From a virus (taxonomy: Duplodnaviria > Caudoviricetes): a DNA stretch of 64,000 nucleotides. Shown in pieces: positions 29,913 to 63,689 of the stretch. The notes under the pieces are model-generated. The model saw nothing but the letters and a program-made list of their open reading frames with translations, had not been told where the DNA came from and did not search any database. Where the stretch lies: IMG/VR virus record IMGVR_UViG_3300032319_001025, positions 80,014-144,013 of that record, one strand, 5' to 3'. Positions within the stretch are counted from its first letter, which is position 1; each line of letters starts with the position of its first letter. A program made the position numbers and the translations under genes.

Positions 29913-29960
29913 ATCATAGCAAAAATAATTAATCTAACAATAACGCAAAGTTTGTGCCAA
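29913..29960 (-). promoter_or_regulatory. Sigma54 -24/-12 site followed by a sigma70-like promoter
   Basis: TTGGCACAAACTTTGC-GTTA-TTGTTA-N16-TATGAT, upstream of the ORF starting at 29892. Confidence 0.75.
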
Positions 29961-32900
29961 TTAAGCTGTTTTATATCTGTCTTCTTCTTTTTCGCTGGTA
30001 AGACTTATGACCTTATCTAATTGAAATCGTTTATTATTTGCAAAATAATACGCAATAACTAGTTTATCTTGAAATCCATGAGGTGCTTCTGACACTTCGG
30101 AATCATACGGCGGCCAGAGTACTTCTTTAGTAAAGACACCGTTAAAATCTATTATAAGTTCTGTAGCTTGTTTTGTTTTGTTTTTATATGTAAAGCATCT
30201 TTCTTTTACTACATATCCAATTCCAGCATATACAATATTTTTATATATTTTACCGTTTTTTTGAGCTTCTTTTGCTGCTTCAAGTTCTTGACCGCTTAAA
30301 ACTTGTACACCATTTTCTGTATACCAAGAAAATCCTTTTTTGATCCCATACCTATTAGACATTATTAACGGTCTAACGTCCTCACTGTAAATACTAATAA
30401 GTTCTTTTTTCATTAAAAATTTACCCAAAGAAGTTACACCTATTAGCTCTTCTGGAACAGATTTTATAGATTCTTTCCTTATTTCAGCTTTTAATTTTTC
30501 AAATTCATATAATTTATTTTCAATGTCTATGTTTGGGTCAGGTAGAATAGAATCTAATACACCAGTAATGATAAGCTTCCTGCTTATACCAGAGTTTACC
30601 GCGCTTCTAATACCTTTTTCTTTAGAGTGGTTTTTAATAACATAATCTTCTAAGTTTGAATATGGAGAATTAGCTATAAGCTGATTAAAAGCTTTTTCAC
30701 CAACGCCGTTAATTATAGAAAACGGCGCTACAAGCTTGTCGCCAACAATTTTGTAATCACCGCCAGAATTATTAATATCGGGCATTCTGATAGAATCAGA
30801 AATATATGGCCAAAACTTGTGGGCAAGCTCATCCTTGCTCGAGTTTGATAAGACTGACTTCCACCAATCTAATGGATAGTTTGTTTTTAAGTACATACAC
30901 GCATAGGCGACATAAGCATATGAAATTGCATGAGATTTATTAAAACTATAACGAGAAGATGCCATTATCTGTTCTATTAAAAGCTTAACTTGATCTTCAG
31001 ACCAACCTCGATCTAAGCACGAATCTTTTAATCTTTTGGTTGCTACTGAAAGTAACTTCTCGTCTTTTTTACCAATGGCTCTTCTAACGTCTTCAGCTTG
31101 TTCAGCTGTAAAACCAGCAAGCTCTCTAAAAATTTGAATTGTTTGTTCTTGGAACAAATTAATACCCACGGTGTCTTTTAAAATAGGTTCTAGGTCTTTA
31201 TGTATATAAGTAATCGATTCGCCGTTTTTTCGCGCTACATAAACTTCAGCTAAAGTTCTACCATCTCCAAATGGTGCATCAAGAGTTCCTGGTCTTGCCA
31301 ATGATGTAATAGATGCTAAATCTTCTATGCTTTTAGGTTTAATACTAATAAGAAAAGGTTTAACGGTTTCTGTATCAAACTGAAACACAGTTTCTGTTCT
31401 ACCGATCTGAAATGACCCAAAAGATTTTTCACAATGTGGTAGATTCCATGGATCTATTTTAATGTTTAATCTTTCTTTTATTGACTCTAAGCACCCTTGA
31501 ATATCGACAAGAGTATTTAATCCTAAAAGATCGTATTTTACTAATCCAGCTAATTCAACTGACTTTGGCGAGAATCCAGTTAAAACAACATCGTTGATTT
31601 TAATTACTGGGCAATAATTTTGTATGGGTTCATTAGCGATTACGACTCCGCAAGCATGGCTGCTTTTTTGACGTATAATACCTAGCATTTCAGTAACAGA
31701 TTGCCAAATCTTGGGATTGTTTTTAGCGTATTTTTTTAATTCTTGGTTTTGCTCTATAAGACCTTGGTGATAGTTTCCATTAGAATCCGTAAACCCTTTA
31801 ACGAATTCTTTACTGTCAACTCCTTGTGGTTCAGATGGTAGGGATTTACACAATTTTTCGGTTTCGTTTGTAACTGTACCAAGTATGGCTCTTTCTGCAT
31901 CTTTAATAGATGACTTAAGCTTTAATAAGCTGTCTGTAGAAATTCTGCAAAAACCGTCTTTATATTTGCTTTGTAAATACTCAATAACTCTATCTCTACC
32001 TGTAGCTGAAATATCAATATCAACGTCAGGTAAAGTATTAGCTTTAATACGTCCAAGAGTTAAAAATCGTTCGAAGGATAAATTATGTTTTAATGGATTA
32101 ACCGCACTAACTCCTAAAAGATAAAGCAATAATGAACCGCCAGCACTACCTCTAACGTTAATTAAAATATTGTTTTCTTTACAAAAATTAGCCATATCTT
32201 CTACTGTAAAAAAATATGACAAAAGATTCATTTTTCCATTTTTTGCTAGAATGTCGATTTCCATTTTTAATCTATCTAGCATTTCTTTATTCGACCAATC
32301 CATGCGTCCATGTCGGTCAATCTTAACTTTAAGTTCTTTTAGCCAATCTGTATTGATTTCTGGTAAAACCCATCTATCTGAATTTGTTTCTATATTAAAT
32401 TCGTTAAAATTGGATGCAAAATCATAAGAATTATCTACAAGTTCTTCAATATCTTTATCTGATAAGTTTAACGTGTGCTTTAGTTCTTCAGCAGCTTCAT
32501 CGGTGCTTATGATATGATAAGATTGATGAAATTTCCAAAGTTCTTGTCCATTGCCAAGTCTGGCATCTTGAGTAAGTTTTTGCTCTTTCCATGCAAAATG
32601 TGAATCCAAAGAAATAATGGCTTTATCACCATATTTTTTAGCCATTTCAAGAACAAACTTGTTTGCTACCTTTTGAATATCTCCATCGATAGCAATATTG
32701 TTGCAACCAATCGGAACAAACTCGCCTGGAGTTATTATTTTACCTTCTGGGCTTTTTTTAGGAGATTTCCAATTATGAGTAATTTGGTGGGGAAACACTT
32801 CAACAAAAAAATTATTTGGTCCTGCAAGTTCTCTTAGCATGCAGTATGCTTTTTCAGCTAGTTTAGGTTCGCTTGTATTAAATTTAGTATAAATCATTGA

Positions 32901-33410
32901 TTGTACTGCGCCAACTAAACAACTAGAACCTAAAGTTATATGGCCAGATATCTTTTGAAGCTCTTCCCATTTCAAAACTGGCTTTCTTTCTCCAAATTTA
33001 ACTACAGCTCTTTCTTCCATTAATGGAGTTAATTGACAAAAATATCTGTACGCTACTACGTCTTTAAAATGAATAGTTAAATGTACGTAATGATTTTTTA
33101 ATTTAGATTCTACTTTTTGACGTTTTTTTTCTAGATTTTTTTCATCTATAGTTTTTTCATAGTATTCTCTATAAAAATCTAAAAATGGAGTTTCTACGTA
33201 TGCTTCAATTCCAAGAATTGGCTTTACATTTAATTTTTTGCAGAGGTAAAAAAGTTCCATTGCTGAATTCATGTTTCCATGTTCAGTTAGGGTTACATGT
33301 GTAGCTCCAAGCTCAATATTTCTTTTGATTATTTGTTGTACAGTAGCAGCCCCGTCCAGGCTATAATGAGAATGGGAATGTGGAGAAATTAATTGTTTGA
33401 ATTTAGCCAT
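29961..33410 (-). CDS. dnaE: DNA polymerase III alpha subunit (family C)
   Basis: PHP domain 'HSHSHYSLDG', 'TEHGNM', 'GIEAY'; polymerase 'RGSAGGSL', 'FERFL', 'PDVDID', 'HACGVVI', 'KYDLLGL', 'YSFNKSHA'. Confidence 0.97.
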   Translation of the reverse strand: MAKFKQLISPHSHSHYSLDGAATVQQIIKRNIELGATHVTLTEHGNMNSAMELFYLCKKLNVKPILGIEAYVETPFLDFYREYYEKTIDEKNLEKKRQKVESKLKNHYVHLTIHFKDVVAYRYFCQLTPLMEERAVVKFGERKPVLKWEELQKISGHITLGSSCLVGAVQSMIYTKFNTSEPKLAEKAYCMLRELAGPNNFFVEVFPHQITHNWKSPKKSPEGKIITPGEFVPIGCNNIAIDGDIQKVANKFVLEMAKKYGDKAIISLDSHFAWKEQKLTQDARLGNGQELWKFHQSYHIISTDEAAEELKHTLNLSDKDIEELVDNSYDFASNFNEFNIETNSDRWVLPEINTDWLKELKVKIDRHGRMDWSNKEMLDRLKMEIDILAKNGKMNLLSYFFTVEDMANFCKENNILINVRGSAGGSLLLYLLGVSAVNPLKHNLSFERFLTLGRIKANTLPDVDIDISATGRDRVIEYLQSKYKDGFCRISTDSLLKLKSSIKDAERAILGTVTNETEKLCKSLPSEPQGVDSKEFVKGFTDSNGNYHQGLIEQNQELKKYAKNNPKIWQSVTEMLGIIRQKSSHACGVVIANEPIQNYCPVIKINDVVLTGFSPKSVELAGLVKYDLLGLNTLVDIQGCLESIKERLNIKIDPWNLPHCEKSFGSFQIGRTETVFQFDTETVKPFLISIKPKSIEDLASITSLARPGTLDAPFGDGRTLAEVYVARKNGESITYIHKDLEPILKDTVGINLFQEQTIQIFRELAGFTAEQAEDVRRAIGKKDEKLLSVATKRLKDSCLDRGWSEDQVKLLIEQIMASSRYSFNKSHAISYAYVAYACMYLKTNYPLDWWKSVLSNSSKDELAHKFWPYISDSIRMPDINNSGGDYKIVGDKLVAPFSIINGVGEKAFNQLIANSPYSNLEDYVIKNHSKEKGIRSAVNSGISRKLIITGVLDSILPDPNIDIENKLYEFEKLKAEIRKESIKSVPEELIGVTSLGKFLMKKELISIYSEDVRPLIMSNRYGIKKGFSWYTENGVQVLSGQELEAAKEAQKNGKIYKNIVYAGIGYVVKERCFTYKNKTKQATELIIDFNGVFTKEVLWPPYDSEVSEAPHGFQDKLVIAYYFANNKRFQLDKVISLTSEKEEDRYKTA

Positions 33411-33448
33411 TTGTTTACCTGCGATAATATTACCACAGATTTACAAAT

Positions 33449-33682
33449 TTACATATTATTTTTAACTTTTCTTAAAGAGGATTCTAGGATTTGCTTGTAA
33501 GCTTCGGGAGTTAAATTCAAAACCCTACATATGAATTTTACTGGAGCGCCTTCAGGATATTTTTCTAATGCCATATTAAGACTATTGAGCAATTTTTTAT
33601 TGCAAATAAAATCGACATCTTCTGAAAGACGTGCTTTATCGTTTTCTGAAACGTATGACATTTGTAAAATTTTTTCTAGCAT
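33449..33682 (-). CDS. Small protein resembling the sigma70 region 4.2 HTH
   Basis: 'YPEGAPVKFICRVLNLTPEAYKQILESSLRKVK' parallels '[29 protein letters not shown]'. Confidence 0.55.
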   Translation of the reverse strand: MLEKILQMSYVSENDKARLSEDVDFICNKKLLNSLNMALEKYPEGAPVKFICRVLNLTPEAYKQILESSLRKVKNNM

Positions 33683-34537
33683 CTATCTTCTTCTGTATTT
33701 CGTTAATCTTTTTCTGTACTTGTTCTAGTAATAATATATCACAATTTATAGATTTTCTTTTTTCATCTATAAATTTAATGAAAAATTTTTTACTTGAAAC
33801 TATCGTTTTGAATTCCCTAATAGACACTATTGTTGATTTGTTGCTTTTTAAATTATTGATAACATTAGATAAATTTACTAAATCTCTTTCGGCATTTTTA
33901 AGATCAATCTCTTCGCGTGCTATGCGAGTTTTGATTGTTCTAAATTTACAAAAAGTTTCCTCAAAACTAATATAGAGCTTAATTAATTCGGCATCGTCTG
34001 TATCTGGTATCCAAATTTTTTTTGACATTTTATTTCTCATTGCCGTCAATTCTTTTTCTATAGTCACATTCTTTACAGAAAGAATAAGTTTTATTTAATA
34101 AAATCAATATTTCTACGTTAAAAGCTTTACACTTTTCACATTGTAACATATTAGCTTGCGGCTTTTCATTAAAAAGCTCTTCTTCTAACGCTCTTCTGTT
34201 TTTACGTACCTGTTTTTTTTCCTTATGTTTTTTAACAAAATTTTCATTTTGTAAACAATACTCTTCGTATTTTCTTAAACGGGAAACTTCTTTTTTAAGC
34301 TCTCTTACTATTTTCTGCAAGCTACGTATTTCGCCGTGAAAATCTTCTTTTTCTTCTTTAAATGACCGATATCGCTTATCTTTTTTAAACAAAGCAGAAT
34401 CCTTTTATAAAATACATATAAAAGATTAAGATAACGACATAATAAATAATAATATAATGATTACAATTATTTATATTGTTTTTTGATGTGTGTTATAGGA
34501 AATTTGTGGTAGTAATGAGATAATTTTATAAAAGTTC

Positions 34538-36142
34538 TTACTTTATTCTCCAATGGCCTCTAATTGAGTTTATTAGCTGTCTAGAGCCATTCTTATAAAC
34601 TAGGCAGGAGGTATGTAGCCATGATGAAGGTCCTTGGTTGTAATCAAGCTTTAAATGACTAGAAGTGCCTACTTGCCAAGCACCGCGCAAAATCATTGGG
34701 GTATGGGCGTGGCCGCTTACAGAATTACCATAAGCGTTTTCCATGGCTTTTAAAGAACCCCTGGAACCGTTAGCACCTTTATCACCGTGACATCCAAGTT
34801 CAATACCAGAAATTTTATAATCCTGGTCTCTTTTTAACCAAAGAACTTTTTCTGGATTTTTAATTTTTACAATTTTTTCCATTGCATATTGTAAAGGATT
34901 TTTACCTTCTAGCATAGCAGCGGCCAATAAACACCCTAAATAGTGATTTTGTGGATCTTCAATATACTTACCTTTTTGTAGGTAATGTTTTGATAAAAAG
35001 TCATGATGATTGCTATCTACAATAATCACTTTTCTTGCTTTATCGCTCCATTTATCAATAAACTTTCCAACAGCTTTTAGTTCATCTAAAAGACTTAATT
35101 TGTTTTCCATGGCCAATCTAGCTCTGTTTATTTTATTATGTTCTTCATGGTGATTAATCGATACGCCAGAAAACATATCATGAAGAATAACATCTTTGCA
35201 TCCAGTATAATCAAAAACTTCTTCCCAAGCTTTTTCAGCAGATTCGTCAGTTTCAGTAACGTGAGAATCTCCCAAAACAAAAGCTTCTGGACTTAATTTA
35301 GTTACATTTTTTTCCGAATAAGAAAGCCCTAAATCAACAAACTCACCTTTTGAATTGGACTGAATTTGTCTGTAATGATAAATATCGTCATTTTCGATTT
35401 CTACAATTACTGCCCCCATTACATGATCGTGGTGCGCAATATAAGATGTTCTAGCATTCATGTATTTTCTAGGCAGATATTCTGATTTAGTAATAGCTCC
35501 AGTAGTCATTAAAACATGTGGCATTTTTTCATTAGATGTTGGTGCGGTCAATAATCTTTGTTTTGGCGACGCATAAACAAAACTTCCTGATCTTTGTCCT
35601 ATCCTTGCAAGGCTTGTAACTGGATCAATTTGTTTTGCAGTTAGCTTGATTGTACTAATAAAAAAGTTAGAATTTAAAGCGATATCAGCAAATACTATAT
35701 GTTCATTTTTAATGATTGGATCTATAGCAACATTAATTCTTGAGCCAGGATCACTAGAAAGCAATATCAGAAGCTTAGCTTTATTTACTTTGCAATAATT
35801 TTTAATAGACTTGTAAAAATTTTTATCAACAGAGCAACCTGTTACTGCTGTAGTAATAACAAATTTTTTATGAGTTTGGATGTCTTTTTTAATTGCAGTA
35901 AGTTTTTCATTTTTAAAAAAATCTGCATCAAGAACAGATGTTAAAAATTTAGAATAGTCTTTTGCTACCAACTCTTTTAGAGAGGAGAAATTGCCAAAAT
36001 AACATTTAATCCTATCTCTACTAATGCCAGCTTTAATTAAATCTGCACGTGATGGATGGAACCCGAGCTTATTAGCTAGTTTGATATAAGTATTAATTAT
36101 GCGTGTAGCCTGAGAAGAAGAACTTTTATTAGTTTTGCTCAT
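34538..36142 (-). CDS. Calcineurin-like metallophosphoesterase with N-terminal helical domain
   Basis: 'VLGDSH', 'HDMFSG', 'SNHH', 'CHGD', 'SGHAH'. Confidence 0.75.
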   Translation of the reverse strand: MSKTNKSSSSQATRIINTYIKLANKLGFHPSRADLIKAGISRDRIKCYFGNFSSLKELVAKDYSKFLTSVLDADFFKNEKLTAIKKDIQTHKKFVITTAVTGCSVDKNFYKSIKNYCKVNKAKLLILLSSDPGSRINVAIDPIIKNEHIVFADIALNSNFFISTIKLTAKQIDPVTSLARIGQRSGSFVYASPKQRLLTAPTSNEKMPHVLMTTGAITKSEYLPRKYMNARTSYIAHHDHVMGAVIVEIENDDIYHYRQIQSNSKGEFVDLGLSYSEKNVTKLSPEAFVLGDSHVTETDESAEKAWEEVFDYTGCKDVILHDMFSGVSINHHEEHNKINRARLAMENKLSLLDELKAVGKFIDKWSDKARKVIIVDSNHHDFLSKHYLQKGKYIEDPQNHYLGCLLAAAMLEGKNPLQYAMEKIVKIKNPEKVLWLKRDQDYKISGIELGCHGDKGANGSRGSLKAMENAYGNSVSGHAHTPMILRGAWQVGTSSHLKLDYNQGPSSWLHTSCLVYKNGSRQLINSIRGHWRIK

Positions 36143-36175
36143 AGTTCCACCCTTTTTTAAACACTTAACTTTAAA

Positions 36176-36814
36176 TTATTTCGATTCCGAACTATTTTTA
36201 AAGTTATATACATTAAGTACAGTAAAGCTACTTGTTTCTTTCTTTCCGTCTTTTAATTCTACTTCATTAGTAAAAGTATCTCCAGCCTTTAGCCCTAAAA
36301 GCTTTGGTCTCAAAGCGTCCTCTTTAGGTACTTCGGAAATCTGTACTGGTCTATAGTTAGATACAGTTACAGTTCCTTGAGCTGTAGAAACTTCGTGTTT
36401 TAAAATTAAAACGGACTCTTCGCTGGATTCTGTAGTATCCACCAATAGTCCAGATGACTTCAAGGATTCCATTTTTTCTTTTTCATTGGCTTCATCTATA
36501 GCTCTAAGCTCGGCCATAATTTCATTGTCTTCAATTAGTTTATGCTTAACTAAAACTTTAGTAAAAGCTGTTAGTAACTTGCCAAGACTGATTACTGTTT
36601 GCTCTAGGGCCAGGTTTTGATCTACAATAGCTTTTAAAGCAGACTGAGCATTAGTAGCAAGGTTTGAAACTTTTTGATCTGTTGTATCAACCTTTGTAGT
36701 AAGCTCTTGAACGTTTGATTGTAATGAAGAGGTTTTGCCTTCAAGTACAGTATTTTTAGCTTTAACTTCAAATACCGATTCTTCTAACTTTACTAATGTA
36801 TCTGTTTGACTCAT
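36176..36814 (-). CDS. Coiled-coil hypothetical protein
   Basis: Long heptad-rich N-terminus; C-terminal 'LLGLKAGDTF'. Confidence 0.5.
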   Translation of the reverse strand: MSQTDTLVKLEESVFEVKAKNTVLEGKTSSLQSNVQELTTKVDTTDQKVSNLATNAQSALKAIVDQNLALEQTVISLGKLLTAFTKVLVKHKLIEDNEIMAELRAIDEANEKEKMESLKSSGLLVDTTESSEESVLILKHEVSTAQGTVTVSNYRPVQISEVPKEDALRPKLLGLKAGDTFTNEVELKDGKKETSSFTVLNVYNFKNSSESK

Positions 36815-36823
36815 TTTTTACTC

Positions 36824-37552
36824 CTAATCTTCTCTTACGTTTCTATTTTTTTGCTGAGCTAAACTGATAGCAGCAGCTAATATTTGACTTTCTTGTGATT
36901 GACCGCCAGAAAAATTTGCGAAGGATTTTGCAGCTTGGGTCTGCATAAGCTGATTCATAACATCCTGTGTAGGCTGTGGTATTCTATCTGGGTTGTTTAT
37001 TTGTGCATAGTTTTGCCCAGTAGCTTTAGAAACATTCGAACTTTTTTGTAATTCTAATTCAGTTTTCGATTTAGGTTTTCTTGCTTCTTGAGGTCTTTGG
37101 TCATTTTTGATTTGATTTCTTTTTCTGACCATTTTTTTAATAGGCTGGCTTGATTGCTGATTTGTGTTAGAAGTAATTTTTTTAGCTACCATTTTAAGAG
37201 CAATCATTTCATCTGGTGTAAGCCCTAAAGAAGATTTATTATTTTTTTGATGTTGAGCTTGTGGCTTTTGTATTACAGCAGGTTCACTACTTGACCTAAT
37301 TCCTAGAAGTTCTTCTAGCTTGGAAACTATAAAATTTTTAATTTCTTTTTCAACTTCTTTTTTAATTGATTCTTCTACATTATCTTCATCAAAAAAAGAT
37401 GCTGTAAGCAAAGATTCAAAAAGCTTTGCTTTTGATATTCTTTTAAAAGCTTCATTTTTTAAATACTCATGTGAAGAATCGGAAGACTCGTCTTCTTCCA
37501 TTAATTCTTCTTCTGTATTTAATTCGTATTCGTCATCAAAAATATTTGACAT
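36824..37552 (-). CDS. Hypothetical protein with acidic N-terminus
   Basis: Long ORF within the operon. Confidence 0.5.
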   Translation of the reverse strand: MSNIFDDEYELNTEEELMEEDESSDSSHEYLKNEAFKRISKAKLFESLLTASFFDEDNVEESIKKEVEKEIKNFIVSKLEELLGIRSSSEPAVIQKPQAQHQKNNKSSLGLTPDEMIALKMVAKKITSNTNQQSSQPIKKMVRKRNQIKNDQRPQEARKPKSKTELELQKSSNVSKATGQNYAQINNPDRIPQPTQDVMNQLMQTQAAKSFANFSGGQSQESQILAAAISLAQQKNRNVRED

Positions 37553-37576
37553 AATGTTACCTATTGATGGATATTA

Positions 37577-38173
37577 TTACAAATTAAATGCGTCTTGTAA
37601 AGACAATTCCGAGTTGTTGTTTTTTTGCAAATTATTTAAAGTACATAAGCCATAATATGCTAAGGCTATCGCATCCGCTTCGTTATTATCCTTGAGTATA
37701 AGCTCTTTTTTGAAAGTTTCGTTTACCCAATTGACAACTAAGTGCTTAGTCGTTATTTTCCCTCTTTTTTTCTTATTTCTTACATCTTTGTTGTGTATTT
37801 TTTGTTCTTTGTTTAGCCTTATTTTAAGTAAGCTTCTCCAAGCGGAAGTGTCTACGTAATTTACTTTTTCTGAATAATTTTTATCCAGTATTCTTTTTAA
37901 TATTCCATAATGAAGGAACTCGAGTTCTTTTTGGGAATGCCTGTTAATTCCTCTATTTGTCTGCTCTATGTAAATTTCATTTACATTGTAATCTTCAATT
38001 AATTTTACTACAAAGTTAGCAAGAATTATTGATTCTTCTATATAGTTGTATTCATTAACAATATTGGTATGTTTCTTGCAATCAACATTAAAAGTTCCAG
38101 ATGACAGGATATTGCCATCTTTCATAATGGCAAATCCCGTGTGTTTACTTACATCTAGACCTAATACTATCAA
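37577..38173 (-). CDS. RuvC-like Holliday junction resolvase
   Basis: 'VLGLDVSKHTGFA', 'IYIEQ', 'DNNEADAIALA'. Confidence 0.88.
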   Translation of the reverse strand: MIVLGLDVSKHTGFAIMKDGNILSSGTFNVDCKKHTNIVNEYNYIEESIILANFVVKLIEDYNVNEIYIEQTNRGINRHSQKELEFLHYGILKRILDKNYSEKVNYVDTSAWRSLLKIRLNKEQKIHNKDVRNKKKRGKITTKHLVVNWVNETFKKELILKDNNEADAIALAYYGLCTLNNLQKNNNSELSLQDAFNL

Positions 38174-38476
38174 GCAAGTTTCCCTCTATTTTTAAGAACA
38201 TCTAGAATCAATTGTCTTTTTAGTTTATTAGCTTTCAAAGGCTCGGTGTAAGTCTGATTGCAAACTTTAAGTTGTTCTTTCAAAGATTGTAAATCCTGAT
38301 CTTCGCTTCTGGCTTCTTCAATTTCCATTGAATATTTTGTTAACGTAACAATTTTTTCTTTTAAATCTGAATCTGGCATCGTAAATACTTCATCTGCAAA
38401 TGTTGCGTCCAAATCTTTAACTTTATCCAAAAGATTTTTTTTAGTTCTTCCTTTTTTTGACATATTATTCTCCTTT

Positions 38477-43971: not shown

Positions 43972-43981
43972 GACACTCCTT

Positions 43982-44065: not shown

Positions 44066-44628
44066 TAAGAATGTATCACAAAAAATTCTTATTTATAAAT
44101 TTTTTTAAAAGAAAAAAAGGCAAGTTGTTTTTGACTCTAAAAGACACAAAGCTTTTAAGTAAATTTCTTTTTCTTTTAAGTGCTTCATTTTTTTGATGAA
44201 TATCTCTAAGATACAGGTAAAGGTTTGAAGATATTTGTTCGATTATTAATTCTTTATCACCGTTTAAAACTGATAAAAAAGTTTTATCAACTGGTAAGTA
44301 GATTGTGTTAAATATTTTTCTTCCATCACCGATGTACACAGTCATGTAACTTTTTTTATCCCAATATACGGTAGCTCTAAGATTTAAATATTTCACAGTT
44401 GTAAAAGGAACTGTAACCATAACACGATTAGTCATTTTTATATCCTCCCCTTAAAAAAAGTTCTTCAATCATAAGTTCATCTTCAATACGTTCTTTTTTA
44501 TCTTTTAATTTAAAGTATAAAAGATGGTTTTTTGTGGTAATTTCTAAATCTTTGTTGGCAAGTTTAGAAATTATTCTATTTATTTTTAATAGCTTTTGTT
44601 TAAGTGTTTGTATTGTATCCATGATTTA

Positions 44629-44677
44629 ATGGTATATATAATTAATATTCTTGTAAATAACGCAAAATTCATACCAA
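44629..44677 (-). promoter_or_regulatory. Sigma54 -24/-12 site followed by a sigma70-like promoter
   Basis: TTGGTATGAATTTTGC-GTTA-TTTACA-N17-TACCAT at the head of the 34-kb minus-strand block. Confidence 0.72.
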
Positions 44678-44719
44678 ATAACTTTTAAAGTTTTCTGTTT
44701 TACTATATAATGACAACAA

Positions 44720-46132
44720 ATGACTATTAAGGAACCAGTAAAAATTTATTTACCAGTCGTAGATAATGAAGTTAAGCGTTTTCTTACGTTTATGGATAGG
44801 TCCGTAAACTATCAAATTTACAAGATAAAAAACAACTTTAGATGGGCATCAGGAGATCCAGAGGGTCATGCGGATAGAATTAAACAACTTAAAGAACAAT
44901 CAGTTAAAACATTGATTTTTAAAGATGATTTTGGTGAATACACTTATAGCGGCTTAGTTTCTGATTTAAAACAAAGGTTTAAATGGGAATTAAAAAATGA
45001 AATATATTATCCAGAACCTAAGCTTATACCTTGGGATAAGCAGCCAGAGTTTGAATTAAGACCGTATCAAAAAGAGGCTGTAGAGGCTTTAAAAGCTGTC
45101 AAACATGGCGCTGTAGAGCTACCAACTGGTAGCGGAAAATCTGCTTGTATAACCGATTTAATCAAGAATTATGGCCTAAAAACTTTACTAATGACACCGA
45201 GCCGTTCAATAACTGAACAGCTTTATCACGATTTATGTTTAAGATTTGGAAAAAAGAGGGTTGGTAAGTTTAGCGGAACCAAAAAAGAAGTTAATAAGTT
45301 AATAGTGGTGGCTACTGGACAGTCTTTAACAAGACTTAATAAGGAAAGCAAAGAATATCAAGAGCTTTCTAACACTGAAGTTTTTATAGCCGATGAATCT
45401 CATTCTGTACCAGCAGAAACATTTGAAGCCGTATGTATGGGCGTGGCAGCAAAAGCCCCTTATAGATTCTTCTTTAGTGCAACGCAATTAAGAACTGATG
45501 GCTCAGAAATGATTTTAAAAGGCATTACAGGGCCAGTTGTATATAGAAAAACCTTTAAAGAGCTTGTTTCAGAAGGATACTTAGCTAATCCAAAATTTAG
45601 AATTTTTAGAGTTGACTCAAATGGTAACACTAACAGGCAAGATGTTAATCAAGAAACAAGAAAGCAGCTTTTTGAAAACCCAAACGTAGCAAAGCTTGCA
45701 GCTGATATAGCTGATAAATCAGTTCAAGGTGCAAACCGTAAAACCCTTATTATTATTGATGAGTTAGTTCAGTACGATTTACTAAATAATTATTTAAAAA
45801 CCAAACACGAATTTATTTGTGGAGCAACACCGCAAGCAAAAAGAGCTGAAATCATTAAAGATTTTAATGAAGGAAGTTTAATGCTATTAATTGGAACTTC
45901 TGCAATTAGTACAGGGGTTGACCTTAAGCCTACAAGTTCGTTAATATACCTACAGGGCGGAATGAGCGAAATTCAGGTAAAACAAGCTATTGGAAGAGGA
46001 ACTAGAATTTTTCCAGGTAAAACCGATCTGTGGGTCTCTGATTTTATGGTTTTAAACTCTAAGCATATGGAAAGACATACTAAAGTCAGAATGAAAATTT
46101 ATGAAACGCTTGGAGAAGTAAAGGTAATTTAA
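44720..46132 (+). CDS. SF2 helicase (UvsW-like)
   Basis: 'LRPYQKEA', 'PTGSGKS', 'DESH', 'SAT', 'TGVD', 'QAIGRGTR'. Confidence 0.92.
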   Translation: MTIKEPVKIYLPVVDNEVKRFLTFMDRSVNYQIYKIKNNFRWASGDPEGHADRIKQLKEQSVKTLIFKDDFGEYTYSGLVSDLKQRFKWELKNEIYYPEPKLIPWDKQPEFELRPYQKEAVEALKAVKHGAVELPTGSGKSACITDLIKNYGLKTLLMTPSRSITEQLYHDLCLRFGKKRVGKFSGTKKEVNKLIVVATGQSLTRLNKESKEYQELSNTEVFIADESHSVPAETFEAVCMGVAAKAPYRFFFSATQLRTDGSEMILKGITGPVVYRKTFKELVSEGYLANPKFRIFRVDSNGNTNRQDVNQETRKQLFENPNVAKLAADIADKSVQGANRKTLIIIDELVQYDLLNNYLKTKHEFICGATPQAKRAEIIKDFNEGSLMLLIGTSAISTGVDLKPTSSLIYLQGGMSEIQVKQAIGRGTRIFPGKTDLWVSDFMVLNSKHMERHTKVRMKIYETLGEVKVI

Positions 46133-46145
46133 TTAGGATTTAATT

Positions 46146-47150: not shown

Positions 47151-47153
47151 ATT

Positions 47154-49517: not shown

Positions 49518-49518
49518 T

Positions 49519-50205: not shown

Positions 50206-50212
50206 AGGTTTT

Positions 50213-51208: not shown

Positions 51209-51209
51209 A

Positions 51210-53793: not shown

Positions 53794-53801
53794 CTTAATC
53801 T
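53791..53801 (+). promoter_or_regulatory. Candidate late promoter motif TAACTTAATCT
   Basis: The same 11-mer as 3527-3537, about 30 nt upstream of the ORF at 53833. Confidence 0.5.
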
Positions 53802-53832
53802 AATGTAAGATACCGTTTTTCAAGGAAAAAAA

Positions 53833-54804: not shown

Positions 54805-54815
54805 TTTAAGGTTTT

Positions 54816-56879: not shown

Positions 56880-57705
56880 CCTCAGTTTAACTCAAAAAGT
56901 GCTAATAACTGCTTTATTAGCTGACTTATTTTATAGAGTTCAAGCTAAGTTTTTGGGGCACAGATTTGAAGGTCCTGTAAAATATAGAATGCTTTCTGCA
57001 ACAGCCGATAAAAATTACACATTAGATGGAATATATCTTTACACTCTTTTCATATTATATGGTATCGGAATATCTCCAGACGAAAAAGAATTAGAGGGGT
57101 TAGCGTCAGTATCTCAAAACTATTTTGAAGTACAAAGACTTAAAGCTACAAATGAACTCATTATAGGTTTAAATGCTGCAAAAAATAAAAAAGAAGCAAA
57201 TGAAATTATTAAAAAAATATTCAACAAAGCTTCAAACTCAATAGAGTTACTGCTAAATACTGAAACTAAAACTGTTCAAGCATACGCAGAATTACATGGA
57301 GTATCTAAGCTTTCTGCTAAAGATGGGATTTCTGACCCTACAATAGTAAAGTTTGGTATTGTTGATGATAGAATTTGCGAAGCTTGTAAAAAACTTTGGC
57401 ACGACAAAGACAATCCATCAGTACCAAAACCTTGGAAAATGTCCGAATTAAATTTTGGTTATAGCTCTTACAAAGATATAAAAGCTACAATAGGACCAAC
57501 ACACCCAAGGTGCAGACATACTATTTCTTATGTACCGCCCAATCATGGATTTAGCGAAAGCGGTAAACTCATGTTTAAACATGAAGGATACGATTATTAT
57601 CAAGAATACTATAAAGTTAATAAAAAAGAAGACTTACAAGAAACTCTTGTGAAATCCTGCACTTGCGACGATCCTTTTCATCATTCCCCAAACTTAATCT
57701 TTTAG
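56866..57705 (+). CDS. Head morphogenesis protein (Mu gpF/SPP1 gp7-like)
   Basis: 'DDRICEAC...GPTHPRCRH'; follows the portal. Confidence 0.75.
   Translation: MKKSNLSLTQKVLITALLADLFYRVQAKFLGHRFEGPVKYRMLSATADKNYTLDGIYLYTLFILYGIGISPDEKELEGLASVSQNYFEVQRLKATNELIIGLNAAKNKKEANEIIKKIFNKASNSIELLLNTETKTVQAYAELHGVSKLSAKDGISDPTIVKFGIVDDRICEACKKLWHDKDNPSVPKPWKMSELNFGYSSYKDIKATIGPTHPRCRHTISYVPPNHGFSESGKLMFKHEGYDYYQEYYKVNKKEDLQETLVKSCTCDDPFHHSPNLIF
57691..57700 (+). promoter_or_regulatory. Candidate late promoter motif AACTTAATCT
   Basis: About 60 nt upstream of the prohead protease gene. Confidence 0.45.
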
Positions 57706-57760
57706 TAAATAGTATAAGTACTTATTTTAATAAGTATTTTATTTTTAAACGGTAATTTTC

Positions 57761-58663
57761 ATGTTAATTGACGGACCAATTACAACTCAAACTATTGATA
57801 GTAGCGGTGAAATTTTAGATTTAAAAGGTCTTGATATTTCCGACTTTTTAGAAGGTAAAGCTACTGCAAATTTTGAGCATAACAATGACAATGCTGACGA
57901 TGTTCTAGGTTGGTTTGTTTATGCTAAAAAAATCTTTAGCGAATCAGATTGTGAAAATGAACGTCAAAAAATGTTTTGGGATAAAGTTAAAACCCCGTTT
58001 TTATATGGTGTATTAGAGCTTTTAGACGACGCCTCTCACCCTGGAGCAATTGCAGTTGCTGCAATGCTTAGATATTTTAAAAAGAAAAATGAACCAGTAA
58101 GAATTGGAATGAGTATTGAAGGATCTACTCTTGAAAGAGATGGGCATATATTAAAACGAACTGTTGGTAGAAAAGTAGCTATTACTCTTAGACCATGCAA
58201 TAAGCAATGTATGCTTGACGTTTTACCGCAAGAACGTACAGATGAATTGATTCATAAAATGGAATCTGATTATATTAAATCTTTCGAAGTTGATTCCCCT
58301 ATACTAGAAAAATCAGAATTTTTAAATAATAATAAAAAGACATTTAATAAATCAGAGTCAAATCTTATCGACGAAATTAAAAAAGATTTGTTAAATTTAA
58401 GAAAAACTCTAACAGCTGGAATGGGAAACGCTGCACCATCAAGTCTTGTAGGCGGTTCTGCACTTGCTGTAGAAGATAAAAAAAATAAAACAAATGTAAA
58501 TGTTTTAAAATCTGTTATTAGAGATTTTCAAGGTAAATCAAAAGAAGATTTTAAGAAAGCAGTAAAAGAAGCTTTACCAGATTTGAGTGATAAATATGTT
58601 GATCATTTTGTTGATTTAGCAGAAGATTTGTCGCTTAAAAAATTTAAGAAAAGACTTTTTTAA
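57761..58663 (+). CDS. Prohead protease (HK97-type fold)
   Basis: 'IDSSGEIL..KGLD', 'NFEH', 'GMSIEG', 'VAITLRPCN'. Confidence 0.85.
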   Translation: MLIDGPITTQTIDSSGEILDLKGLDISDFLEGKATANFEHNNDNADDVLGWFVYAKKIFSESDCENERQKMFWDKVKTPFLYGVLELLDDASHPGAIAVAAMLRYFKKKNEPVRIGMSIEGSTLERDGHILKRTVGRKVAITLRPCNKQCMLDVLPQERTDELIHKMESDYIKSFEVDSPILEKSEFLNNNKKTFNKSESNLIDEIKKDLLNLRKTLTAGMGNAAPSSLVGGSALAVEDKKNKTNVNVLKSVIRDFQGKSKEDFKKAVKEALPDLSDKYVDHFVDLAEDLSLKKFKKRLF

Positions 58664-59123
58664 GGAGTGAAAAATGAAAGCAGAATTTCATGAAAATGGA
58701 ATGATTAAAATGGAATTTGATAGAAGCACCCCAGAGCATATCAAAAAAGCGGCACTTAAATGGGCTAAAAAAAGAGGTTTAAAAGCCACTGAAGCATCAT
58801 TAAATAAATCCGCTAACTCACCAGAATTATACATTTTTTCAGTATCGGGTAAAAATTTACCGCTAACTGATAATTACATTTCTAAAAAATGGGACTTTAA
58901 ATAATTGTTTTTATTAAGTATTTTGTCTAATACTTATAATTAACAAAAAAAACAACAATTACAATAACTTATTAAATAGTTGAAATTATTAACTATTTTA
59001 TTTTTATCTTAAATCTTATAATTAAGGCAAAGTATAACTTTGCGAAAAGTTTAAGTTTATCGTACAATCAAAACTTGATTAAAACTTTAACAGACTGTCG
59101 TTAAAGACAAAGGAGATAGCAAA

Positions 59124-59546
59124 ATGTCAGCATTTAAAGCTCAGGCGATGGCCAGAAACCTTACACAGCGTTTGAAAGCACAAGTTGCTCCTACGCTTAC
59201 AATTACTCAAACATTGGATGCAAACAACATGCCAATTTTGAAAATTGAAAAAGGTGCAGAGAAAATTTTTGTTAAAATCGAAGTAGAACAAAATCCTTCT
59301 GGCGGTGTTAACGCTGTTGGAATCGCTCAAGAATCATACAGCCCACACGCTGTTACTATCTTGAGAGACAGCACTGCATCAGATGCAGACCTAAGAGAAA
59401 AAACATCGAGCGAAGCTATCAAACTTGGAACTAAAGTTGATATTTATCAAGTAGATCCAATGCCAGCTTCTTACGATTTAACTGGAGCATCCAAGGTTGC
59501 TTCTTTACCATCAGATCCTTACAACAAACTTACTCTTTCCGAGTAA
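59124..59546 (+). CDS. Probable head-associated structural protein
   Basis: Strong RBS (AAGGAG); first gene of the scaffold-capsid unit. Confidence 0.45.
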   Translation: MSAFKAQAMARNLTQRLKAQVAPTLTITQTLDANNMPILKIEKGAEKIFVKIEVEQNPSGGVNAVGIAQESYSPHAVTILRDSTASDADLREKTSSEAIKLGTKVDIYQVDPMPASYDLTGASKVASLPSDPYNKLTLSE

Positions 59547-59600
59547 TATTTTTTTGTTTTTAAGTTTATCTGATATAAACATTTTTTTAAGGAGTTATCA

Positions 59601-60548
59601 ATGTGGCTAAATGATAAAGAAATCGAATCATTGATTTCTTCGGTACAAGAAGAGCTTGAAAAAGCTGAATTCTTGGCAAAATCTTATCAAAAAGACGAAG
59701 CCGAAGACGAAGAAGCCCCTGAGCAAGAAGCTGCAGAAGAAGCAGCTCCAGAAGCTTCAGCAGAAGCCCCTGAAGAACATGAATCTGAAGAACCTGCAGA
59801 AGTTTCTGCAGAAGCTCCAGAAATGCACGAAGAGGCACCAGCGGAAGCACACGCAGAAGCTGAGGAAGGTTCTCAAATGTCTGATGAAGACCTAGTTAGA
59901 ATTTATTCTTCTATGTCTCCTGAAGAACTTGAAAGACATGCTATGATTGCTCAAATGGTTGCAGAAAGAATGCATCCTGAATCAGAAGCAGCTCCTGAAG
60001 AAGAAGCAGCTCCTGAAGCAATGAAAGCAGAAAAAGAAGAGGATGAAGATGAAGAACACGAAGAAAAAGCAGAAGCCTGCAAAGCTGAAAAAGAAGCTGA
60101 CCACAAAAAAGAAGCAAAAGAAAGCCACAAAGAAGACGAAGACCACAAAGACGACAAAGACGAAATGAAAAAGTCTGAGTCAGAAATTCTTCTAGAAAAA
60201 TTAAAGGCTTACGAAACAGATTCAAAAGAGATTAATTCTTTGAAAAAAGAAAATGAAGCTCTTAAAGCAGAACAAGAAAAACTGAATAAATCTATCGATT
60301 TGCTAACTAAAGCAATCGAAGCAGGTTTCAAACCTGTCAGAAAATCAGTTGCTGGGGTTGAATTTACAACTCGTTCTCAAGAAGTTTCTGAAGCAAAGCC
60401 TTTAACAAAGTCTGAGCTTATGGAAAAAATTAAAGAGAAGGTAAAGGAACCAGCTCTTTCTAAGTCAGAACGTGATTTAATTAATCAGTACGTATTATAC
60501 GGTACTGATAAAGAAAAAGTTGAAAAACTTATTATCGGAGGAAAATAA
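59601..60548 (+). CDS. Scaffolding protein
   Basis: Highly acidic, rich in E/A/P/K, with a coiled coil; immediately upstream of the MCP. Confidence 0.75.
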   Translation: MWLNDKEIESLISSVQEELEKAEFLAKSYQKDEAEDEEAPEQEAAEEAAPEASAEAPEEHESEEPAEVSAEAPEMHEEAPAEAHAEAEEGSQMSDEDLVRIYSSMSPEELERHAMIAQMVAERMHPESEAAPEEEAAPEAMKAEKEEDEDEEHEEKAEACKAEKEADHKKEAKESHKEDEDHKDDKDEMKKSESEILLEKLKAYETDSKEINSLKKENEALKAEQEKLNKSIDLLTKAIEAGFKPVRKSVAGVEFTTRSQEVSEAKPLTKSELMEKIKEKVKEPALSKSERDLINQYVLYGTDKEKVEKLIIGGK

Positions 60549-60550
60549 CA

Positions 60551-61960
60551 ATGGATCTAGTAAAAACACTAGAAAGTCTAGTTAAGACGCTAGAAGCTGG
60601 TAATTATAATGCCGCTCCTAGTAACTTAGTCCAAGGTTCTGCATTGCAGATGGAAGATCTTTCCCCTGTTATGCATAACGTATGCTGGGACGATAGCCAT
60701 ATTAAACTGCAAAAACTTTTTTCAGTTAAAAAGGCAAAATCGATTCTGGTTCAATTCAACCGTAAGCTGTCCTATGGACGTTTTGGTGGATCTGCAAGAC
60801 GCGAAGGATATGTAGGCGATGTGAAAACTGGCGACTACATCCGAGCAGTGGTGCCGATGTGCTTCTACTCTCAAGTTCGACGCGTTACGATTGCTGCTAA
60901 CATGGTTGATACCATGGACGGAATTAAAGCAGAAGATCGTGAAGCCGATAACGCAGCTATTGAATTAGCTGGGGATATCGAATTTGATATGTTTAAAGGA
61001 AAATCAAACTTCTCTAACGCTGGAGTGTTTGATGGTAATCCTTTAGCAATTCCTGAACTTCCAAACATGCTTGGTGTTGATGTTCAAGTTCGTCAATCTG
61101 ATGATCAATTGAATACTCAAGACCTTATGTTCCTAAGCTACGGCGGAAACCGATCAGTAGTCCTTTCTAAAAATGGACCTCTTGATCAACCGATCGTAGA
61201 AGATGCTGCTCTACGAAGCCGCATGAACCATGGTAAAGCAGAAATGCTATTTGTTGATCCAGTAGTTCTTTCTGGATATAACAAATCAGTTGCTCTTGGA
61301 ACTGGAGCTAATAGCTTGCAACGTATCGTTCTAGCTGGTTCCGCTCAAGATGCTTCTGGAGCTGACCTACGAAGACAATGGGTTTCTAACGGAACAGTTC
61401 AAATCGAAGATAGCCGATTCCTAAGCGGAAAAACTCAGCCAGACCGACCAAACATCGGTTCTCCTGCTACCCCTTCGATTGCTGTTCAACCTGTTGCTGG
61501 AGCGGGTGGAGCACTTCCTCCTGCTACCTATAAATATCTTATCACTGCTGTTAACGAGCGTGGTGAGTCTTTAGGTGCTCTAAGTAACTCTGCAACCTCG
61601 ATTGCTGGTGAAAAAATCACTCTAAGCATTGCACCGCAAGCTGGAGTTCTTTATTTCAGTGTTTACAGAGCTTCTGGAGCTTCTGTAGCAGCAGCAGATT
61701 GCAAATTCATCGGAAACGTAGCTCAAGCAGCTAGCGGTAACACCGTCTTCACAGACCTTGGAAACCGAAGCGAAGCTTTTGTTACTGGATACCTAGTACA
61801 AAAAGATTGCTGGGGAATTCATGAGTTAGCTTCTTACAGCCGATTGAAATTGGCTATCAGCGACTTGTCGCTACCTGAAGCTCACTTCCGATTCTTGACT
61901 CTTGCTGGTTATGAACCACGTAAGAACGTCTTGATCGATAATTTGACAGGTACTTTTTAA
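60551..61960 (+). CDS. Major capsid protein (SPO1/Twort-like) with an Ig/Fn3-like insertion
   Basis: N-terminal 'KTLEAG...GSALQMEDL', 'IEFDMFKG' and 'FDG'; insertion 'PATPSIA...TYKYLITAVNERGES'; follows the scaffold and precedes a strong terminator. Confidence 0.88.
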   Translation: MDLVKTLESLVKTLEAGNYNAAPSNLVQGSALQMEDLSPVMHNVCWDDSHIKLQKLFSVKKAKSILVQFNRKLSYGRFGGSARREGYVGDVKTGDYIRAVVPMCFYSQVRRVTIAANMVDTMDGIKAEDREADNAAIELAGDIEFDMFKGKSNFSNAGVFDGNPLAIPELPNMLGVDVQVRQSDDQLNTQDLMFLSYGGNRSVVLSKNGPLDQPIVEDAALRSRMNHGKAEMLFVDPVVLSGYNKSVALGTGANSLQRIVLAGSAQDASGADLRRQWVSNGTVQIEDSRFLSGKTQPDRPNIGSPATPSIAVQPVAGAGGALPPATYKYLITAVNERGESLGALSNSATSIAGEKITLSIAPQAGVLYFSVYRASGASVAAADCKFIGNVAQAASGNTVFTDLGNRSEAFVTGYLVQKDCWGIHELASYSRLKLAISDLSLPEAHFRFLTLAGYEPRKNVLIDNLTGTF

Positions 61961-61987
61961 TTAAAAATTAAATAGTATTAAATATTT

Positions 61988-62021
61988 AACCCCTGATTGG
62001 CTAAGCTAATCAGGGGTTTTT
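61988..62021 (+). terminator. Rho-independent terminator
   Basis: Hairpin AACCCCTGATTGGC-TAA-GCTAATCAGGGGTT followed by a T run. Confidence 0.9.
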
Positions 62022-62051
62022 ATTTGTCCTTTATTGTGGTATAATTAGCTT

Positions 62052-62426
62052 ATGAAAGTTTATACACAAGAGCAGGAACAAAAGATTTTAGAGCTTAAAA
62101 AAACCCTTACTACAAATTCAGATATCGTAAAAATAACTGGTGTTTCTCTTTCTACAGTTAAAAGAATACTAAGAAATAATGATATTCGTTTAACACCACA
62201 ACAAAGGCAAGAAAATGCTTATAAAGCGAAATTAACTAAAAATCCAAATGCTTTAGCCGAAATGCGCTCTAAAATAACAAAAGAAGGCAGGAAAAAACAA
62301 TCAGAAGGCTTAATACGTTCAACCATGGAGCGTTCTAAATCTGGAGAAATATCTAAACATTTTAAAAGAGTCTGGAAACAAATGAAATCCGATTCAGATT
62401 ATATTAAAAAATGGTTATTAGAATAA
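62052..62426 (+). CDS. HTH + NUMOD3-like DNA-binding protein (possible homing-endonuclease remnant)
   Basis: 'NSDIVKITGVSLSTVKRILRNNDI' and 'TKEGRKKQSEG'; no nuclease motif; TGGTATAAT just upstream. Confidence 0.5.
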   Translation: MKVYTQEQEQKILELKKTLTTNSDIVKITGVSLSTVKRILRNNDIRLTPQQRQENAYKAKLTKNPNALAEMRSKITKEGRKKQSEGLIRSTMERSKSGEISKHFKRVWKQMKSDSDYIKKWLLE

Positions 62427-62435
62427 GGTGCATAT

Positions 62436-62876
62436 ATGCCAAACATTAAAAAAGTAAATTGGTACGGATTAAATAACAAAAGAGTTAGTAAACGTTTTAA
62501 AACAGACTTAACTTATTGTAATGACTTTTGTGTTAACGGTGAATATGAACCAGTATCAGTTTATTACGATAAAAATCCAGATAGATCAAAAGGCCATAAA
62601 GATTATATTTTATTGTATGTTTCAAAACCCAATTTGATAATTAGAGGTATGGATAAAGAAGAGATTGAAAAGTTTAGATACCAAACAGCAATACATTGTA
62701 AAGAATGCGATACCGTACTTTATTCTGTAAATAGACATCATTTTAATAGCTGTGAATGCCCAAATCAAACATCTATAGATGGCGGCAAAGATTATACTAG
62801 ATGTTCAGCTAAAGACTTTACCAAAACAGAATACGTAACAATAGATTTATTGACCGATAAAATCGATAAAAATTAA
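62436..62876 (+). CDS. Zinc-binding hypothetical phage protein
   Basis: 'AIHCKECDTVLYS..RHHF.SCEC....IDGG.DY.R'. Confidence 0.6.
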   Translation: MPNIKKVNWYGLNNKRVSKRFKTDLTYCNDFCVNGEYEPVSVYYDKNPDRSKGHKDYILLYVSKPNLIIRGMDKEEIEKFRYQTAIHCKECDTVLYSVNRHHFNSCECPNQTSIDGGKDYTRCSAKDFTKTEYVTIDLLTDKIDKN

Positions 62877-63062
62877 TTTGTTCCAGTTTTTTCTAAAACG
62901 CTTATAAGCTCAGCAACTTCATCCTCGTTTAAATTAAATCTACCCATTAAAAATTCTTCATCAAAAAAACCGTACCCGTCAGTACAGCACTCTTCATCAA
63001 AAATAATTGATCGAATAATTTTATTTAAGTCTTTGTTTTCCATAAATCCTCCAGAGATATAA

Positions 63063-63413
63063 TTAAAAATTGTAATCAAAAAATTCCCGTCTAACCCCAA
63101 ATTTAATACCTTTACTACCCTTTGTAGGCTCTCCTTTAACCACCCATTTGCCATTTTTACGTAACGAAACTTCTATTATATGACCGTTACTATCGGATTC
63201 ATACGTGTATTCTTGCGCATAATTATTAGTACAATGTCCTGCAAAACCACCAGGTATAATATTTGGTTTAAAATTTGGATCTAAAGTAGACTTGTCTTTT
63301 TGTAAAAAGACTTTCTTTCCAGATTTAGATATTTTAATTACAGTGTAAGCAGAAGAATCAGAATATCCAAATACTGTAGCGCCCATTCCAATAATGATAT
63401 CATTATTTCCCAT
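63063..63413 (-). CDS. Conserved hypothetical phage protein
   Basis: 'GMGAT....SD...YTVI...LRKNGKW...G.R..FDYNF'; GAGG RBS upstream of the ATG at 63413. Confidence 0.55.
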   Translation of the reverse strand: MGNNDIIIGMGATVFGYSDSSAYTVIKISKSGKKVFLQKDKSTLDPNFKPNIIPGGFAGHCTNNYAQEYTYESDSNGHIIEVSLRKNGKWVVKGEPTKGSKGIKFGVRREFFDYNF

Positions 63414-63421
63414 AAAACACC

Positions 63422-63622
63422 TCAAGCAGCTTTGTTTTTGTTTCTGATTTCTTCAATAGTTACAGGAACATAATTGATTTTACCATATTGATTTTTTAAT
63501 TCATAAATATCTATTCCGCTTGTACCATTTACAGATACATCAATAGATAAAATTTCAAAAGTAAAGTAAGTATACATTCTATTATCTGATTTAGTTCTAA
63601 CTAGCCATTTTGGTGCTTCCAT
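63422..63622 (-). CDS. Hypothetical protein (start revised to MEAPKW)
   Basis: AGGAGG RBS directly upstream of the ATG at 63622. Confidence 0.5.
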   Translation of the reverse strand: MEAPKWLVRTKSDNRMYTYFTFEILSIDVSVNGTSGIDIYELKNQYGKINYVPVTIEEIRNKNKAA

Positions 63623-63641
63623 ATGCCCTCCTGATGATTCA

Positions 63642-63689
63642 ATAATATCAAATCTGAACTTTGATTCAATAACGCAAAGTTTATGCCAA
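63642..63689 (-). promoter_or_regulatory. Sigma54 -24/-12 site followed by a sigma70-like promoter
   Basis: TTGGCATAAACTTTGC-GTTA-TTGAAT-N16-TATTAT. Confidence 0.75.

Follow-up and report, generated by a model that had tools for sequence, protein, structure and literature searches.

Sigma-54-like boxes abutting sigma-70-type promoters in the minus-strand arms of a tailed-phage genome

The region analyzed here is a 64,000-nucleotide window (bases 80014–144013) of the 144,013-bp tailed-phage record IMGVR_UViG_3300032319_001025 (hereafter G000), and its subject is a 22-bp box, TTGGYAYRAAYTTTGCGTTATT, that resembles a sigma-54 site and directly adjoins a sigma-70-type promoter. The record is complete, with 123-bp direct terminal repeats and a GC content of 33.7%. 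Its plus-strand arms carry the portal and other virion genes. On the minus strand lie a 34-kb replication arm, with genes for GroEL-like, SbcC, DnaE, RecA-like, and DnaB-like proteins, and an early arm of small genes that runs across the genome ends, its products including FtsH, a ClpP-like protease, and a DUF932 protein. The box occurs six times in the genome, three times inside the window, and the six sites (G000 positions 799, 4511, 5429, 109973, 124690, and 143702) head, or sit within, both minus-strand arms; in the extended form TTGGYAYRAAYTTTGCGTTA, all six copies are on the minus strand and intergenic. A first-pass annotation had singled out three intergenic 16-mers, and these were recovered as described on the minus strand at 29945–29960, 44662–44677, and 63674–63689 of the window, each in a gap upstream of a minus-strand gene.

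The copies were nearly identical and sharply set apart from the rest of the genome. A matrix built from them scored the six boxes at 32–38 bits and everything else at 12 bits or less; the boxes are a sharply bounded class with no intermediates to background, not the tail of a degenerate motif, and chance is excluded as the origin of six near-identical 20-mers. The site at 11464, formerly counted as a fourth copy in the window, does carry TTGGTATGAATT, which corresponds to the first 12 bases of the box only. It is below threshold, has no −12 GC, and is out of promoter register, and it is at most a decayed relic. Over ten copies, six from G000 and four from its close relative G002 (IMGVR_UViG_3300020214_000019; DnaE 92% identical), in which the layout is as in G000, variation was restricted to five positions and consisted of transitions, all of them tolerated by the sigma-54 consensus. 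By inspection, the box did not fit the Fis, IHF, Fur, LexA, cre, pho-box, or dif consensus, formed no convincing hairpin, and was not palindromic.

Next to the box, a hexamer of the form TTGnnn or TTTACA, which serves as a weak −35, followed directly, with no gap, at all ten sites. At seven of the ten, a 16-nt spacer ending in TGn preceded TATnAT, which constitutes an extended −10 element. The three TTTACA sites had no TG; two of them had a 17-nt spacer and then TACCAT, and the third (G000 5429, outside the window) had a spacer of 16 or 19 nt according to the choice of −10. A ribosome-binding site and start codon lay 10–45 nt downstream of the box promoters, and the copy at G000 4511 stood directly behind a GC-rich, terminator-like hairpin. 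The features of sigma-70/sigmaA extended −10 promoters (TAnnnT, TGn or a −35 at 17 ± 1 nt, and a nearby ribosome-binding site) were thus all present. For the three window copies, the order described previously (GG-N10-GC, then GTTA, a TT-starting hexamer, 16–17 nt, and a −10 of TATGAT, TACCAT, or TATTAT) was confirmed, with a TGn extension at two of the three. The description of one copy as heading the 34-kb block likewise held: this is copy 2, in a divergent gap that separates the replication arm from the helicase/sigma arm (Table 1). Promoter-like sites of the sigma-70 type without a box were also found in the minus-strand arms, including this block.

Table 1. Positions of the boxes, the adjoining promoters, and associated features in the window
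Feature	Position	Strand	Remarks
Box copy 1, TTGGCACAAACTTTGCGTTA	29941–29960	−	Starts immediately past the dnaE stop codon; top score of the genome with the Salmonella sigma-54 matrix (19.7 bits)
Sigma-70-type promoter 1	29913–29940	−	TTGTTA, 16 nt, TGcTATGAT; upstream of a 90-aa gene (29620–29892)
Box copy 2, TTGGTATGAATTTTGCGTTA	44658–44677	−	In a 97-bp divergent gap (44623–44719); 13.3 bits with the Salmonella sigma-54 matrix
Sigma-70-type promoter 2	44629–44657	−	TTTACA, 17 nt, TACCAT; heads the 34-kb minus-strand block, first gene 44428–44622
Box copy 3, TTGGCATAAACTTTGCGTTA	63670–63689	−	Terminal early arm; 18.1 bits with the Salmonella sigma-54 matrix
Sigma-70-type promoter 3	63642–63669	−	TTGAAT, 16 nt, TGaTATTAT; before an AGGAGG ribosome-binding site, ATG at 63622
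Partial box, TTGGTATGAATT	11453–11464	−	No −12 GC; below 12 bits with the matrix from the phage's own copies
Winged-helix protein (HTH_36/RepL-like), 209 aa	43342–43971	−	Third gene behind box copy 2
Divergent sigma-70-family protein, 334 aa	46146–47150	+	Top PDB sequence hits all primary sigma factors (E = 4e-4, region 1.2–2)
Motif CTTAATCT	3530–3537, 53794–53801	+	Among 17 plus-strand sites in the genome

Comparison with relatives indicated that box and promoter are maintained separately. Across the four orthologous promoter pairs of G000 and G002, identity was 55% in the 20 nt upstream of the box, 93% (82/88) in the 22-nt box, 69% in the last four bases of the −35 hexamer, 64% in the variable part of the spacer, 89% (32/36) in the 9-nt extended −10, and 69% in the 12-nt leader; the −10 region of promoter 2 was conserved at 9 of 9 positions, and the extended −10 of promoter 1 was also kept in G002. 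Because the box and the extended −10 are both conserved above their flanks, they form two separate islands, and the box and the sigma-70-type promoter are, by this comparison, both under purifying selection. The box was absent from distant relatives, namely G001 (GC 54%) and metagenome relatives, which confines its evolutionary comparison to one close relative, and a bare TGnTATAAT was found at the same place after dnaE in G001 and in a metagenome contig of 36% GC. Judging from this distribution, the ancestral state was the extended −10 promoter alone, to which the lineage of G000 and G002 added the box and −35. The overlapping sigma-70 promoter proposed by the first-pass annotation thus looks real, since its extended −10 is kept better than the spacer and is also present in box-less relatives after dnaE. 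A k-mer count of repeated boxes in G001 returned only the unrelated TGAAGATTAGGCT, present there as five same-strand copies (12891, 21763, 42647, 54957, and 110857, plus strand).

At two places, G000 carried a module between two box promoters where G002 had a single one: the DUF932 cassette (G000 4515–5408) and approximately 1 kb across the termini (143716 to 748). This pattern is what would be expected from recombination between repeated promoter cassettes, the modules being bounded by duplicated cassette junctions. The fixed register of box and promoter, which the first-pass annotation had emphasized, is real in all copies and recurs in unrelated phages; within this phage, part of it follows simply from the direct contact of box and −35 and from the origin of the copies as duplicated cassettes. 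The same modules would also suit a box with no role in transcription, either a repeat at sites of recombination or cassette junctions or a relic that duplicated promoters brought with them. We regard this as highly improbable, given that the box is 93% conserved between the two phages as against 55–64% for adjacent DNA and that the same box is found in unrelated phages, as described below.

We evaluated the resemblance to sigma-54 sites with an independent matrix derived from 29 intergenic Salmonella sigma-54 sites mapped by chromatin immunoprecipitation on microarrays (ChIP-chip; PMC3844500, Table 3). In a scan of both strands of G000 (approximately 288,000 positions), the full-genome survey with an RpoN matrix that the first-pass annotation had proposed, the five top hits were five of the six boxes, at 18.1–19.7 bits. 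Sites drawn from the matrix itself scored 14.5–24 bits (5th–95th percentile; median 20.5), and shuffled genomes gave a mean maximum of 15.3 bits and a highest value of 21.1. The sixth box (TGGTATG...) reached only 13.3 bits because T at its fourth position never occurs in the Salmonella set. GG and GC were exactly 10 bp apart within TGGCAY-N5-TTGC in 6/6 copies of G000 and 4/4 copies of G002, and the boxes were intergenic and pointed at the downstream gene, as sigma-54 promoters require. The commonest box was identical at 15 of 18 positions to the hypA site TGGCATAAATATTGCTTT, the most strongly bound sigma-54 site of the Salmonella set (PMC3844500). In sequence terms, the box is indistinguishable from bound sigma-54 sites, and the adjoining sigma-70-type extended −10 is, by its conservation, selected. 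The boxes resemble bacterial sigma-54 (RpoN/SigL) −24/−12 promoters, such as Salmonella hypA and E. coli glnAp2, in TGGCAY-N5-TTGC, GG-N10-GC, score, and orientation; they differ in the lack of an activator gene or conserved enhancer, in the G after GC, in the conservation of spacer and 3′ flank, and in being present in six copies. The same matrix gave 15.2 bits to TGGCATGTTGTTTGC (59220–59234, minus strand), which lies antisense within a plus-strand gene, is kept in G002, and may be a chance match or an intragenic site.

Based on these features, we tentatively favor, at slightly less than even confidence, a reading of the six sites as dual-sigma composite promoters at which sigma-54 holoenzyme would compete with sigma-70-type holoenzyme. 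On phage entry, the host sigma-70-type holoenzyme would fire the box promoters, and the host sigma-54 holoenzyme would dock on the box. Sigma-54 closed complexes are stable and remain silent without an activator. Since the −12 GC is only 4 bp from the −35, a distance that provides the geometry of an overlapping sigma-54/sigma-70 pair, binding of such a complex would mask the −35 region, making the two holoenzymes mutually exclusive. Given the lack of an activator or conserved enhancer in the phage, the default state would be an activator-free brake, the strength of which would track the host's ratio of sigma-54 to sigma-70 holoenzyme. With a host activator acting from solution, which is possible, the same operon would instead start at the 3′ edge of the −35 hexamer, approximately 30 nt upstream of the sigma-70 start; within the sigma-54 reading, we place occlusion somewhat ahead of activation. 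The copies would have spread as duplicated promoter cassettes flanking gene modules.

Occlusion of this kind has bacterial precedents. In E. coli, sigma-54 represses at overlapping sigma-70 promoters (Schaefer et al., 2015, PMC4551910; Zafar et al., 2014, cited there), and C at −12 is associated with repression (PMC4551910). In the phage, as at these loci, the sigma-54-like site overlaps the expected footprint of the sigma-70 promoter, which would make binding mutually exclusive, and the phage box keeps the C at −12. The E. coli cases are single chromosomal loci, whereas the arrangement in G000 appears to be a repeated viral early-promoter cassette in a fixed register (GC, 4 bp, −35).

The box was also sought in other viruses. 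In the first two IMG/VR scans with the 20- to 22-mer, most matches outside the family were about as many as chance predicts, so only unforced positions were taken as evidence. A viral-contig scan that forced only TGG-N8-TTGCGTTATTGACA yielded 24 loci, and in almost all of them the first four unconstrained bases read CAYG, in agreement with the sigma-54 consensus. In a second scan, with TGGCAYG-N4-TTGC and TTGACA both fixed and the gap between them allowed to vary from 1 to 8, there were at least 137 matches; among the matches listed, 114/137 had a gap of 4 or 5 (42 and 72, respectively), none had a gap of 3, and any other gap accounted for seven at most. Three families featured in this set, with lineage counts that are rough because single-linkage clustering merged tandem-array families: filamentous prophages carrying Rep_trans and Zot genes, with a replication protein that shares 45% identity with those of Xanthomonas and Stenotrophomonas inoviruses; a family of small contigs; and marine podovirus-like contigs with 56-bp tandem arrays. 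These arrays (L184, L192, and L269) consist of two to four units 56 bp apart, each with a perfect TTGGCAYG-N4-TTGC and then ATGGGTTGACA, and showed no evident sigma-70 −10 at 17 nt downstream.

Three unrelated large phages, G007 (190 kb, GC 37%), G008 (204 kb), and G004 (49 kb, GC 53%), carried the same box fused to TTGACA. Both G008 and G004 had a −10-like hexamer 17 nt past TTGACA. G007 had two divergent copies flanking iterons, one with TAAGAT 17 nt past TTGACA and the other with TATAAA at 15 nt or TAAATT at 17 nt, and one of its boxes was the same as copy 2 of the window over 21 bases. The element was present once or twice in each of the three phages, not as a repeated class. The approximately 500 bp between the divergent promoters of G007 (L280, 1500–2040) contained a four-fold tandem repeat (catattcacttttt ataat) and a direct repeat (taggaacaatttgcaccca), and this region looks like an origin or control region. 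The composite pattern had no match in 401 sampled genomes of the class of Methylomicrobium or in 401 of the phylum of Geobacillus, where fewer than one would be expected at the density seen in viral contigs. Because the box is shared by such different phages, its reader is more likely to be a universal host component than a private regulator. The scans across phages are supportive, not proof.

Several results weigh against the dual-sigma reading. The six copies are paralogues, so their likeness to sigma-54 sites counts as one event, not six, and with a chance of approximately 5e-6 to 1e-5 for a random box and approximately 250,000 windows scanned, about one chance case would be expected. A sigma-54 gene was not found in the phage (Sigma54_DBD profile, no match). 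The earlier statement that the window encodes no enhancer-binding protein proved to hold for the whole genome, in which the Sigma54_activat profile (PF00158) produced only an 11-bit hit inside the FtsH gene; nor was there a shared enhancer motif within 220 nt upstream of the boxes. Of the first-pass reading, the quality of the RpoN-like site and the sigma-70-type promoter are backed by sequence evidence; the host-state-sensing switch is a conjecture. The base after GC is G, which is rare in bound sites (1/29), although it is present in the bound Salmonella proV site (PMC3844500). Box-less relatives manage with the extended −10 alone, and it is hard to see what a lytic phage would gain from a brake on its own early promoters. 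In the second scan, the sigma-54 core was forced by the pattern, most of the matches listed came from the three families, and singleton lineages showed only a weak preference for gaps of 4–5. The phage FtsH, approximately 50% identical to proteins of Bacillota and Methylococcales alike, is uninformative as to the host. Finally, all 22 bp of the box are kept, including the spacer AA and GCGTTATT, which exceeds what sigma-54 needs and is operator-like.

This last point bears on the chief alternative, in which a dedicated DNA-binding protein, either an early or virion-delivered phage protein or a host factor other than sigma-54, would use the box as its operator and activate or silence the early promoters. 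The likeness to sigma-54 sites would then be coincidental, and a winged-helix dimer arranged head to tail just upstream of the −35 could be accommodated by the 11-bp half-units TTGGCATAAAC and TTTGCGTTATT. Conservation across the ten sites extends to positions that sigma-54 does not read; the box occupies a position (about −35 to −56) used by activators and repressors; it is present on an all-or-none basis within the genome; and, as a repeated class, it is confined to the lineage of G000 and G002, fitting a lineage-specific regulator. A candidate binder is the 209-aa winged-helix protein encoded behind copy 2, which G002 also encodes and for which no counterpart was detected in G001. This candidate, however, resembles a RepL/replisome-organizer type of origin binder, and a second one, a 124-aa helix-turn-helix protein (62052–62426), is missing from the box-bearing G002. 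Moreover, a private site would reach 18–20 bits with the Salmonella matrix only about once in 1e5, and near-identical boxes with TTGACA occur in unrelated phages, from inoviruses to phages of 190–204 kb with GC contents of 37–63%, which argues for a universal reader. We consider an operator of this kind possible, if doubtful.

The position of the box is also that of an upstream promoter (UP) element, and an extended element of this type, read by the alpha C-terminal domains or sigma region 4 of a sigma-70-type holoenzyme, would make the early promoters very strong. The A/T-rich center (AAACTTT, GAATTTT) and the resemblance of TTGGCA and TTTGCG to −35 hexamers one helical turn apart are in keeping with this explanation. 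It seems improbable, as the ten copies have six invariant G/C positions and near-perfect identity where UP elements are degenerate and A/T-rich, other sigma-70-like promoters of the same arms have no box, and the box-less relatives carry the same extended −10.

Among the phage's own products is a divergent sigma-70-family protein, whose gene is transcribed as part of the arm diverging from box copy 2. This protein had no Pfam hit; among all phage proteins, Sigma70_r2 had no match and Sigma70_r4 only an 11-bit hit. It is 42% conserved in the box-less G001 and is probably the late sigma of the phage. Of the 17 plus-strand occurrences of the motif CTTAATCT in the genome, 15 were intergenic, at 16–90 nt before the starts of virion genes; a single occurrence was on the minus strand. 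The motif is a candidate for a late promoter of the single-box kind, with the phage sigma as its presumed reader. Together with the box-less sigma-70-like sites and the box promoters, this motif appears to make up a set of three promoter classes. A 77-aa open reading frame (33449–33682), considered as the second part of a split sigma, showed no sigma region-4 signal and was rejected in that role.

The presence of this sigma raises the question of whether the box belongs to a promoter for a phage-encoded apparatus, that is, the divergent sigma, an appropriation of the MotA/AsiA type, or a phage RNA polymerase. Near-identical boxes of 20–25 bp are typical of phage-specific promoters, and TTTGCGTTA is one base off the T4 MotA-box consensus. 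Nevertheless, conservation of the phage sigma extends to the box-less G001, and the late class is already fitted by CTTAATCT. The box is centered near −45 with the −35 kept, whereas MotA boxes lie at −30 and replace the −35. A T7-type RNA polymerase (RNA_pol profile) was matched in neither the phage nor the control genomes. We rate this explanation as very improbable.

Phage T4 offers a further comparison. Its program has three promoter classes, namely early sigma-70, middle MotA-box, and late gp55 promoters, and it possesses mobile early-promoter cassettes (PeSLs). G000 is similar in apparently having three classes, and in having repeated early promoters on either side of gene modules that vary from one relative to another. 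It differs from T4 in that the box is upstream of a retained −35 instead of replacing it and reads as a site for sigma-54, which T4 does not use.

To our knowledge, phage early promoters are seen as simple, strong sigma-70 sites, and hardly any use of sigma-54 by phages has been described; our literature search returned no such case. Bacteria are known to have overlapping sigma-54/sigma-70 promoters (PMC4551910), and we found no published account of such overlaps either repeated as a cassette at the principal early promoters of a phage or recurring across phage groups. If sigma-54 does dock on the box, the virus would gauge the physiology of its host by way of sigma-factor competition, without a regulator of its own, and the same fusion in unrelated phages would represent a general design. 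It is conceivable, though we would not rank it above unlikely, that the fusion of a sigma-54 site to a sigma-70 −35 at a distance of 4–5 bp is a design that has recurred and may be mobile, found from filamentous prophages to 200-kb phages, through which the host's enhancer-dependent holoenzyme would act as an activator-free gate or sensor on viral early transcription. If sigma-54 does not bind, the box would still be a master operator of the phage's early program.

Under the dual-sigma reading, occupancy of box copy 2 could also time expression of the late sigma, given the weak divergent −35 located 5 bp away. This −35 belongs to the promoter of the divergent helicase/sigma operon, at the helicase gene at 44720 (plus strand; region 44680–44722), in which TATAAT stands 8 nt before the ATG and no ribosome-binding site is present; the helicase mRNA is probably leaderless.

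Among named phages, G000 had no close DNA relative and none nearer than Myxococcus phage Mx1, to whose DnaE its own is 34% identical. No tRNA genes were found in G000. The ClpP-like protease of the early arm (G000 2717–3511, minus strand) and its FtsH were both present in G002, and neither was detected in G001. The FtsH (G000 830–2629, minus strand) is full length, with extracellular, AAA, and M41 peptidase domains.

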